IMG/VR virus record: IMGVR_UViG_3300045988_042358
Coordinates: 1 to 59,894 of that record
DNA length: 59,894 nucleotides
Strand: one strand, 5' to 3'
Source: a virus
In this document: positions 10,030 through 11,242 of the stretch, piece by piece
Position numbering within the stretch: position 1 is the stretch's first letter
Layout: every line of letters starts with the position of its first letter
Made by a program: the position numbers and the translations under genes
The notes under the pieces: generated by a model
Seen by the model: the letters and a program-made list of their open reading frames with translations, nothing else
Database searches by the model: none
Told to the model about the DNA's origin: nothing

Positions 10030-10941
10030 TTAATACTTAATATTCATATTTCCGTGTTCATTAACCCAATCAATAGCTTCCGCGTATGTCACGCCGTTGT
10101 TTTTCAGAACATACAGTAAGTTGTGAAATTTAGGGTGTGTTTCTTTTAACATCTGGAACCTATTTGGCTCTTTCTCTAAATGGCAGCCAAATCCACACAG
10201 CACACATCCAGTTCTTCGACATCCTGTAGTTTTCAGCAATGGTCTTTCCTTATCAAAAATTCCAAAATCAGCAAACGACATCTGATTTTTACATTGTCCC
10301 ATAGCTTCATAATCTGTGACTACTTCTCCATAAACTGAACATATTGGCAGATTATTTTCTTTGATGTAAAGCAACACATCTTGTTCTGCCCAAAAGCTCA
10401 TAGGATTACTTGTTGGAATTTTCAAGTCAAATCCATTGCAGCCATTCTGTAACCATTGTGAAGTCCTTAATTTACTTTCGCTAGCCATTTGAGCGGTAAT
10501 AGGCACTCTGCCTGTATCTTTGTTGTATTGATGCATAGGCTGTTTCTTCATTACCTTGCAACATCGGTTAGATACTTCAAATGGTGCATTTAGCATAAAT
10601 AAGTACTTTGACCTGTCGTACATACTGCCAAAATCTTCACACTTGACACCGAATAACTGTTTTACTCTGACAGGTGCTTTCAAAATTTCGCTAGGGATAT
10701 TCCCCATCTTTAAATCCACAAAAGTTTTGTTTTCCTTGTCTGTTCTCCTGTCTATTCCTACCAAGTCGGCTATGCGATAAGCAAACGGAATCCCTGTCTG
10801 TCTGTCTGTCTGTCTGTCTGTCTGTCTGTCTGTCTGTCTGTCTGTCTGTAAGGATTCTAATGTATTTTCTGCTATCTGCAACACATTCTGATATTTCTTT
10901 TGAAAACATTGGAAATCCATACTTTTCACAAACCTCTGCAA
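10030..10941 (-). CDS. PAPS reductase/PP-loop family protein, C-terminal fragment (frame +1 relative to the N-terminal fragment)
   Basis: The part downstream of the SSR carries the Cys cluster CRRTGCVLCGFGCH. The ORF-track N-terminus upstream of 10849 is a frame artefact. Confidence 0.6.
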   Translation of the reverse strand: MQRFVKSMDFQCFQKKYQNVLQIAENTLESLQTDRQTDRQTDRQTDRQTGIPFAYRIADLVGIDRRTDKENKTFVDLKMGNIPSEILKAPVRVKQLFGVKCEDFGSMYDRSKYLFMLNAPFEVSNRCCKVMKKQPMHQYNKDTGRVPITAQMASESKLRTSQWLQNGCNGFDLKIPTSNPMSFWAEQDVLLYIKENNLPICSVYGEVVTDYEAMGQCKNQMSFADFGIFDKERPLLKTTGCRRTGCVLCGFGCHLEKEPNRFQMLKETHPKFHNLLYVLKNNGVTYAEAIDWVNEHGNMNIKY

Positions 10942-11242
10942 ATGAAATCTTAGGTTTTAAAATCACAAGGTTGTCAAATGTCTGTGCAAACTGTTTCAAC
11001 TCTGGATATTGTGTCGGTACATCTACGAACACAAAAGGAATGTTTTTATATCCGCAAACTTCTCTGATTATATGTCCTAAAACTGTGCTATCCTTACCGC
11101 CGCTAAATGATAGATACACTCCGTCTTCGCCAAACTCATCAACCCAGTTTCGTACTCTCTCGGCTGTCATTAAAACCTTGATATTAAGTGGTAATGCCTG
11201 CCATTGGTACAATTCTTGCATTGTATGTTTATTTTCTGCCAT
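10691..11242 (-). CDS. PAPS reductase/PP-loop family protein, N-terminal fragment
   Basis: YLSFSGGKDSTVLGHI (SGGxDS PP-loop). It reads through the SSR as TDRQ repeats, then runs into out-of-frame sequence and stops. Confidence 0.7.
   Translation of the reverse strand: MAENKHTMQELYQWQALPLNIKVLMTAERVRNWVDEFGEDGVYLSFSGGKDSTVLGHIIREVCGYKNIPFVFVDVPTQYPELKQFAQTFDNLVILKPKISFAEVCEKYGFPMFSKEISECVADSRKYIRILTDRQTDRQTDRQTDRQTDRDSVCLSHSRLGRNRQENRQGKQNFCGFKDGEYP
10794..10849. repeat. perfect tetranucleotide microsatellite, (CTGT)14 on plus = (ACAG)14 on the coding strand
   Basis: A 56-nt uninterrupted tract read directly. It encodes TDRQ in all three frames. Confidence 0.95.

Follow-up and report, generated by a model that had tools for sequence, protein, structure and literature searches.

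Phase variation driven by simple sequence repeats (SSRs) is a classic bet-hedging device of bacteria. In Haemophilus influenzae and Neisseria, contingency loci carry tetranucleotide repeats inside genes, such as (CAAT)n in lic1A and (AGCC/AGTC)n in mod (PMC2651432, PMC11868660). In phages, homopolymeric contingency runs were described in the agt and rIIA genes of T2 and T4 (Gomez, Barrick & Waters, bioRxiv 10.1101/2025.10.21.683753), and polyG tracts in the receptor-binding proteins of Campylobacter Fletchervirus, as cited in the same study (Sorensen et al. 2021, cited in 10.1101/2025.10.21.683753). In T2, such tracts toggle agt, a DNA glucosylation gene, between hosts with opposing type IV restriction systems (10.1101/2025.10.21.683753). 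Here, we describe a tetranucleotide repeat that splits a phosphoadenosine phosphosulfate (PAPS)-reductase-like gene in a viral DNA of 59,894 nucleotides (IMG/VR record IMGVR_UViG_3300045988_042358, positions 1 to 59,894; hereafter, the window). An earlier note on the window, made from its letters only (the sequence-only reading), proposed a candidate locus for phase variation by slipped-strand mispairing. Comparison of related loci, with a variable tract, intact halves and purifying selection, strongly supports this proposal, and it is likely that the tract is a hypermutable SSR acting as a slipped-strand switch in a phage gene of the PAPS-reductase superfamily.

The locus resembles those of Haemophilus and Neisseria in that a perfect 4-nt repeat lies within the open reading frame (ORF), near its 5′ third, with a copy number that toggles the full-length product, and in that natural isolates frequently show either state, ON or OFF, with ORFs otherwise intact. 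However, it lies in a temperate phage of gut Lachnospiraceae (Gram-positive) and not on a bacterial chromosome, it concerns a PF01507 enzyme gene and not a surface-structure or Mod gene, and the unit itself is turned over at the same site (ACAG, AACG, AGCC or an 8-mer). With the T2/T4 and Fletchervirus loci, it shares a phage-encoded SSR and reversible frameshifts. In T2, the repeat lies in a DNA-modification gene, and different host restriction systems favor its ON and its OFF state, a case of bet-hedging. These phage loci are short mononucleotide runs (6-11 nt) of virulent phages, studied experimentally, with variant frequencies of ~1e-3. In contrast, the present locus is a 4-nt microsatellite of up to ~80 nt, found in temperate gut phages and documented by comparative evidence, and about two thirds of the genomes were assembled with OFF as their consensus. 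The literature describes SSR phase variation in many bacteria; in phages, only the polyG tracts of Campylobacter phages and the homopolymers of T-even and other virulent phages were found, and searches on phase variation by tetranucleotides or microsatellites, in phages or in gut viromes, returned no report on the present locus. The study of the T-even loci presents phage contingency loci as new, with no mention of tetranucleotide repeats or of temperate phages (10.1101/2025.10.21.683753). The mechanism is already known. What is new is a long tetranucleotide with unit turnover, in a PF01507 gene of a large family of temperate gut phages, where OFF alleles are the majority. As an example from natural populations, the locus would differ in type from these, with a long tetranucleotide conserved at one codon.

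In the window, the tract is (ACAG)14 on the - strand, that is (CTGT)14 on the + strand, and covers 56 uninterrupted nucleotides at 10794-10849. Tandem Repeats Finder (TRF) returns a period of 4 nt, 14.0 copies, 100% matches and zero indels, in agreement with the raw sequence. A five-unit probe has 10 overlapping matches in the window, with 0 expected from dinucleotide-preserving shuffles, and a window-wide repeat scan found no second microsatellite comparable to (ACAG)14. The PAPS-reductase-like gene lies on the - strand, from an ATG at 11242-11240 to a stop codon at 10030-10032. Its length, 1213 nt, is 1 modulo 3. The features of the gene are as follows.

11248..11254, - strand: Shine-Dalgarno-like AGAGGTG, 5 nt upstream of the ATG (read from the sequence).
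10850..11242, - strand: N-terminal coding part, codons 1-131, with the PP-loop SFSGGKDS (ORF translation, Pfam; S47-G-G-K-D-S52 nearly invariant).
10794..10849, - strand: tetranucleotide tract (ACAG)14, the likely hypermutable element (TRF, raw sequence, shuffles; variable in relatives).
10691..11242, - strand: ORF as assembled (OFF), 183 aa, in which the N-terminal part and the tract are followed by a tail that is out of frame (translation; same product in two other assemblies).
10030..10793, - strand: C-terminal coding part in the +1 frame, with the remainder of PAPS_reduct, the CC...CxxC cysteines and the C-terminal helices (translation, Pfam; dN/dS ~0.13).
10030..10707, - strand: 225-aa ORF annotated by gene callers in OFF alleles, starting at the Met of 'MGNIPSE' (gene calls; a possible re-initiation product, relevant to a rival explanation only).

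The N-terminal frame (MAENK...SFSGGKDS...) passes through the tract and reaches a stop codon at 10691-10693, which yields 183 aa, and the C-terminal part (IPFAYRIADL...CRRTGCVLCGFGCH...NIKY, then stop) is in the +1 frame relative to it. Depending on the frame, the tract peptide is TDRQ, QTDR or RQTD, and no stop codon occurs in any of the three. When the copy number was edited in silico, 13 units gave an ORF of 402 aa and 16 units one of 406 aa, and 11, 12, 14, 15 and 17 units gave products cut to 154-187 aa. The tract is a perfect repeat in a coding region, with a unit (4 nt) that is not a multiple of 3, as is the case for frame-switching SSRs. The sequence-only reading was accurate on these points: the perfect 56-nt tract agrees with TRF and the raw sequence, translations place the entry and the exit of the gene in frames shifted by +1, three-frame translation of the tract recovers the TDRQ-type repeats, and the edits reproduce the 402-aa and 406-aa products of 13 and 16 units.

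The repeat varies widely among relatives. Thousands of homologues were retrieved from 5.8 billion proteins, and the best 120 of them (70-94% identity) were inspected. These have 0, 1, 2, 3, 4 or 5 TDRQ repeats at the tract position; some show NERT (encoded by AACG) or ASQP (encoded by AGCC) repeats in place of TDRQ, and degenerate versions occur, such as TGRQADRQ and TDIQTYRH. At the DNA level, in 80 IMG/VR loci, the segment between the two anchors is made either of the repeat alone (one subfamily) or of a conserved 29-nt stretch plus the repeat (the others). The ON/OFF ratio of these first 80 loci was discarded, as the search ranks in-frame matches made of a single high-scoring segment pair first. 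Because this ranking favors in-frame genes, the set was replaced by loci re-sampled with a 22-nt degenerate DNA pattern of the right flank, blind to the tract and to the reading frame. Among IMG/VR viral contigs, 113 loci were scorable (32 ON, 72 OFF, 9 contig ends in the tract), and among metagenome contigs 101 (27 ON, 63 OFF, 11 contig ends in the tract). Merging and deduplication left 190 loci, with 53 ON, 117 OFF and 20 contig ends in the tract.

Across these 190 loci, the length of the tract at the same codon ranges from 0 to about 20 units. The merged ON fraction, 31%, is indistinguishable from the 1/3 of a random frame (p=0.57), and segment lengths modulo 3 among 115 unique full alleles are distributed 44:41:30, so that all three frames are populated. 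The copy-number variation among relatives that the sequence-only reading had proposed to look for is thus present, with ON and OFF alleles side by side. ON is more frequent in short tracts (<=4 units) than in long ones (43% vs 27%, Fisher p=0.046), which gives weak support to the view that a stable tract lets selection for ON show. Among 12 long contigs, integrated or free, that were tallied by hand, ~5 were ON and ~7 OFF, with no trend. Perfect tracts of at least 5 units are found in about 3/4 of the loci, across clades down to ~57-60% C-terminal identity, and the tract recurs in hundreds of independent assemblies. Moreover, AACG, AGCC and the octanucleotide ACAGACAA are three other frame-shifting units that occur at the same codon. 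The octanucleotide also varies between identical flanks, since (ACAGACAA)n has 9.5 units in one locus (L134), which is ON, and 11.5 units in another (L176), which is OFF. A sequence-specific DNA-binding role for (ACAG)n was set aside, as AACG, AGCC and 8-mer units replace ACAG at the site. Two outcomes that the sequence-only reading had named as contrary to its proposal were not found among the relatives: instead of stably separate halves without a repeat, these have one gene with a variable repeat at this codon, and instead of a one-off insertion or a chimera, the tract is seen in many assemblies and in clades down to the identity given above.

Very close relatives give the rate of change its scale. 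Among pairs 99-99.99% identical over ~1.15 kb of flanking coding DNA, the length of the tract differs in 38 of 42. A further 19 pairs with zero flanking mismatch are 1-14 units apart; these pairs differ by construction, because identical genes had been removed beforehand. The tract changes much faster than substitutions accumulate. It may be noted that one 66-kb IMG/VR contig (3300045988_046751) carries two diverged PAPS-like copies (L106 and L145), with C-terminal halves 84% and 62% identical to that of the window and tracts of 14 and 16-17 ACAG units, both OFF. Two paralogues in one phage, or else a chimera created by the assembly, would account for this contig.

Frameshifted genes in assembled viromes raise the question of assembly errors, that is, of a mis-assembled or mis-called repeat number that would make the frameshift unreal in the window or in the whole family. 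For the window itself, this concern is justified. The window is circular and complete: its two ends overlap exactly over 55 nt (1-55 / 59840-59894), which leaves 59,839 bp of unique sequence and shows that the contig comes from a de Bruijn assembly whose final k was 55. In a graph with this k, a tract of at least 15 units forms a 4-nt cycle, and in simulation the shortest path for any tract of at least 14 units always measures 56 nt, i.e., 14 units. This limit affects how far any repeat of at least 56 nt in the window can be trusted. An identical 183-aa OFF product, with the same 14 units, is found in two other assemblies, one with SPAdes-style contig naming. A scaffold whose C-terminal half is 100% identical (L324, 1200-1414; ENA ERZ28662228, scaffold_150) reads (ACAG)14 ACA, a run of N, then (ACAG)14 GGATTCC, and this gap shows directly that longer alleles of the locus defeat assemblers. 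Similarly, the contig of a relative with a C-terminal half 99% identical to that of the window ends in the tract. The count of 14 is therefore probably a lower bound, to be read as at least 14 units, in any frame, and the statement of the sequence-only reading that the assembled gene is OFF by exactly one unit is unreliable, 14 units being the ceiling at k=55. The sequence-only reading had itself named an error of assembly or consensus as the trivial alternative.

For the family, the same explanation fares differently. Tracts of 5-13 units (<=52 nt) are OFF in 95 of 131 loci, and because such tracts are below k=55 and fit inside single reads, these OFF alleles do not result from k-mer collapse. 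Assembled counts above 14, up to about 20 units, also occur. Contigs ending in the tract, a target of <=80 nt in genomes of ~58 kb, account for 20 of the 190 loci, well above the chance expectation, which we estimate at ~0.2% per contig. An assembly or consensus artefact thus bears only on the exact count in the window, and as an explanation of the locus it can be given hardly any probability. The conclusion at the level of the locus is independent of the window's own count.

Apart from the frameshift, OFF alleles are intact. All N-terminal halves are open; apparent stops in 16 of them were rejected, as the start had been projected upstream of the real ATG. The C-terminal frame is full length in 69 of 71 OFF alleles, and the two broken ones have only 2-3 units. 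Ratios of nonsynonymous to synonymous substitution rates (dN/dS, Nei-Gojobori) are nearly the same within the two classes. In the N-terminal half, they are 0.15 (ON-ON pairs) and 0.16 (OFF-OFF pairs), and in the C-terminal half 0.130 and 0.133, respectively. The IPFAYRIADLxGIDRR block, just after the tract, is conserved. Since the part that is untranslated in OFF alleles is as constrained as it is in ON alleles, the OFF state appears to be transient on an evolutionary time scale. The locus therefore combines what is expected of phase variation: ON and OFF alleles both present, an ORF otherwise intact, and purifying selection. As a separate observation, a prophage of Lachnospira intestinalis CLA-AA-H89B (L083, contig 1, 3001-3120) retains only a remnant of the gene, in which residues 5-38 are joined to residues 386-402. 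The internal deletion took out the tract and the catalytic core, which indicates that outright loss of the gene is possible.

Sequence and structure place the enzyme in the PP-loop superfamily of PF01507. The fused protein corresponding to 13 units matches Pfam PF01507 (PAPS_reduct) with 63.9 bits (cut-off 22.5), in two stretches that flank the repeat region, and PHROG 424, 'phosphoadenosine phosphosulfate reductase' (1e-34). An alignment of 76 sequences shows hardly any variation in the PP-loop S47-G-G-K-D-S52 and none at C222, C223, C341 and C344. A CC...CxxC arrangement is the [4Fe-4S] cluster-binding pattern of adenosine phosphosulfate (APS) reductases. Membership of the superfamily is thus indicated by a profile score above the gathering threshold, by the SGGKDS motif and by a PAPS/APS reductase-like fold. 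A PDB sequence search with the protein gave nothing useful. An AlphaFold2 model was obtained for an in-frame homologue 93% identical to the protein (P0001), with a mean predicted local distance difference test (pLDDT) of 87 and a predicted TM-score (pTM) of 0.84. With this model, Foldseek retrieved as nearest folds PAPS/APS reductases, the PAPS domain of FAD synthase, CysD, NAD synthetases, TtuA and LarE; these are generic PP-loop enzyme matches, with TM-scores of ~0.3-0.35 normalized on the query. The sequence-only reading had suggested an AlphaFold model as a way to locate the repeat. In the model of P0001, the repeat (residues 132-144) forms the C-terminal end of the helix 115-136 and the following coil, with a lower pLDDT of 73-76, at the start of a clade-specific insertion of ~80 residues (about 125-205, partly with pLDDT <50) that is missing from many more distant homologues. 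In this predicted structure, the position is plausibly suited to a segment of variable length.

The enzyme shares with CysH the PAPS_reduct domain, the PP-loop, the CC...CxxC motif (as in Fe-S APS reductases) and PAPS/APS reductases as best structural matches. However, it differs from CysH in its ~80-residue insertion, in an extra C-terminal domain and in the location of its gene, which is in a replication/recombination module and not among sulfur-assimilation genes. NCBIfam scores are below the cut-offs for NF002537 (34.2 bits vs 154), TIGR00434 (25.2 vs 165.1) and TIGR02055 (24.3 vs 235.3). Judged from these scores, far under the curated thresholds, the enzyme is not a bona fide CysH. The sequence-only reading had also called the gene DndC-like. 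A PADLOC scan of the protein returned no DndC match, only PP-loop matches to BrxP and SspD, and this label is unsupported past the shared PF01507 superfamily.

In another explanation, the enzyme is made regardless of frame. RNA-polymerase realignment or ribosomal frameshifting on the tract, or a split enzyme whose second half is re-initiated at the MGNIPSE Met (10707-10705), would account for a 1/3 ON fraction together with purifying selection. The repeat encodes the same peptide, with no stop, in all three frames; the Met is present in 104 of 113 alleles, the annotated 225-aa ORF overlaps the end of the N-terminal fragment, and the split site falls in the low-confidence surface insertion of the model. 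However, the 28 codons between the tract and this Met have a dN/dS of 0.30 in the ON frame (0.13 elsewhere), a constraint that would not be expected if they were untranslated or misread. A split would also fall within the Rossmann-like core and separate the PP-loop from the remainder of the domain. Ribosomal frameshifting was set aside, since the ACAG repeat contains no slippery heptamer of the X XXY YYZ type. Transcriptional slippage is well documented on homopolymer runs but, to our knowledge, it is not established for 4-nt units. Expression independent of frame thus appears very unlikely.

A slipped-strand switch, the preferred explanation, can be described as follows. Mispairing of strands during replication of the DNA would add or remove 4-nt units, reversibly, and each step would shift the downstream two thirds of the gene into another frame. 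A full-length enzyme would be produced only when the number of units is 1 modulo 3, the other two classes giving a truncated N-terminal fragment. As the repeat is free of stops and is predicted to lie in a flexible helix end or loop, in-frame changes of length would be tolerated, which would make the switch reversible. As the phage is temperate and the gene is part of an early lytic operon, we infer that the phage probably replicates mostly as a silent prophage, with a tract drifting freely among the frames, and such a drift would result in an ON fraction of about 1/3. Episodic selection, during lytic growth on new hosts, would then keep both halves functional. By analogy with a vibriophage anti-Dnd PAPS protein and with T-even agt, the enzyme may be useful on some hosts and costly on others; if so, the switch would serve for bet-hedging.

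The analogy deserves some comment. Phage homologues of PAPS reductase are usually annotated as auxiliary metabolic genes (AMGs) of sulfur metabolism, and PAPS reductases have also been noted in anti-defence regions of phages. In a vibriophage, a fusion of a PAPS domain to Dam overcomes the Dnd system of the host, and a phage that acquires it loses its adaptation to the ancestral host (Piel et al., bioRxiv 10.1101/2021.05.05.442762; Nat Microbiol 2022). In that system, a PF01507-type domain is encoded in a variable region, its anti-defence role was shown experimentally, and the trade-off is of the kind that would reward a switch. Unlike the enzyme studied here, the vibriophage protein is fused to Dam, acts in a Vibrio host and has no SSR. 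The functional analogy is a lead only. On the basis of this literature, we propose for the PAPS-like enzyme a possible role in DNA modification or anti-defence, with costs and benefits that would depend on the host.

Several observations weigh against an adaptive switch or against this role of the enzyme. All the evidence for switching comes from comparisons between assemblies. The viral and metagenome collections overlap, with 18 loci common to both. The window's count is at the ceiling of the assembler and its own ON/OFF state is uncertain. The ON fraction equals the neutral 1/3, with no current selection for ON, and in long tracts it is, if anything, under 1/3 (27%, p=0.08); a non-adaptive hotspot fits these fractions equally well. 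As regards function, the enzyme fails the family cut-offs of CysH, APS reductase and CysD. Its PADLOC matches are confined to the PP-loop (BrxP, 6e-7, residues 40-81; SspD, 7e-5, residues 44-93). Finally, PADLOC, Pfam and PHROG scans of the scanned neighboring ORFs found no Dnd/Ssp partner of the DndD/SspC type and no desulfurase.

In an alternative explanation, slippage simply occurs in a length-tolerant loop of a gene that is dispensable under most conditions. The tract would be a non-adaptive mutational hotspot, with no selection for switchability, and OFF alleles would be frequent loss-of-function mutations, neutral or mildly deleterious and only incidentally reversible. The random ON fraction and the roughly equal frame classes agree with it, as do the loss of most of the gene in the Lachnospira intestinalis prophage L083 and the existence of interrupted or degenerate ON alleles (TGRQADRQ, L320). 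However, long perfect tracts (>=5 units, in ~3/4 of the loci) are retained across deep clades, three other frame-shifting units occupy the same codon, and purifying selection on both halves is strong and equal in OFF alleles. An important gene under constant frameshifting would be expected to fix interruptions that stabilize the tract. The higher ON frequency of short, stable tracts (43% vs 27%, p=0.046) points weakly in the same direction. On balance, we regard a purely mutational hotspot as unlikely, and slipped-strand phase variation remains the preferred explanation of the locus.

If the tract is such a switch, split or 'frameshifted' PAPS-reductase genes and contig breaks at this position in gut viromes would represent biology and not errors to be discarded. 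Counts of presence or absence of a phage 'cysH/PAPS reductase AMG' would overstate how often the enzyme is expressed. Moreover, the ON/OFF polymorphism would offer a direct handle on the role of the enzyme, through the DNA chemistry and the host range of locked-ON and locked-OFF phages.

The phage of the window is temperate. The following genes of the window were annotated.

179-1309: integrase.
7408-8853: DnaD-like and P-like helicase loaders.
11254-11730: SSB, on the same strand as the PAPS-like gene and directly preceding it.
11678-12259: HNH endonuclease, just beyond the SSB gene.
12201-12947: metal-dependent hydrolase.
13560-14297: RecT.
14687-16669: SbcC-like ATPase of 660 aa (SMC/SbcC-like), 3.4 kb upstream of the PAPS-like gene.
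17715-18431: anti-repressor.

The PAPS-like gene directly follows the SSB gene on the same strand and has the ribosome binding site AGAGGTG, and it therefore belongs to the early/replication operon. The 660-aa ATPase has only weak matches, to LmuB, PbeC and JetC, and lies beside RecT in an apparent recombination module. The scans of the neighboring ORFs mentioned above (PADLOC, Pfam, PHROG) also returned neither a ParB-like partner nor genes of sulfur assimilation. The replication module is surrounded by three genes for putative nucleases of the homing type, at 4595-4969, 9417-9938 and 11678-12259. The one at 9417-9938, immediately downstream of the PAPS-like gene, has a weak GIY-YIG match (E 0.0018, under the Pfam cut-off); the other two are of the HNH type.

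The relatives come overwhelmingly from human-gut metagenome assemblies. Among GTDB species representatives, relatives were found in a Blautia metagenome-assembled genome (MAG), a Lachnospiraceae MAG and a Lachnospira intestinalis isolate, whose prophage has 86-90% DNA identity to window 12192-13548; these 3 relatives are sufficient for assigning the host family and too few for allele statistics. Megablast of window 9000-13000 against deposited phages gave no match, and tblastn of the protein against them gave matches of <=45% identity only (Clostridium, Ruminococcus and Vibrio phages), none with the tract. The phage thus has no characterized close relative.

A second microsatellite was observed in some relatives. 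A C5 DNA methyltransferase gene near the PAPS-like gene carries, at a conserved site (...NGTLPNTI / repeat / AGACATGCGTTGACGG), an (AGAGC)n tract whose copy number varies from 4 to about 16. It is found in L005 (2806-2840), L057, L084, L200, L217, L234, L239, L252, L262 and L314, and at contig ends in L006, L040, L155, L229 and L309; several contigs break there, again at 55 nt. In L005, the methyltransferase frame is in at least 3 pieces. A C5 methyltransferase lies within 4 kb of the PAPS-like gene in only 5 of 81 loci. The window has no (AGAGC)n repeat, and a C5-methyltransferase probe had no match in the flanks of its PAPS-like gene (window 6001-15300). It may be proposed, tentatively and with more doubt than confidence, that a widespread family of temperate phages of human-gut Lachnospiraceae keeps, by selection, microsatellite switches in DNA-modification or anti-defence genes, ACAG in the PAPS-like gene and, in some relatives, (AGAGC)n in the C5 methyltransferase gene. 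If this is true, bursts and lineages would carry heritable and reversible ON/OFF combinations that hedge against modification-blind or modification-dependent restriction, and phages would have their own equivalent of bacterial phasevarions. The 'cysH AMG' so common in phages would then be a conflict gene and not a gene of sulfur metabolism.

Besides the SSR, the phage has a diversity-generating retroelement in window 21359-22950. Its reverse transcriptase (PHROG 1423) is encoded at 21359-22507 on the - strand, and a 108-nt direct repeat is found at 22602-22709 and 22843-22950, the two copies being 94% identical. In 7 of 7 mismatches, a T in the first copy (A on the - strand) faces C, G or A in the second, a pattern that corresponds to the adenine-specific signature of transfer from a template repeat to a variable repeat.

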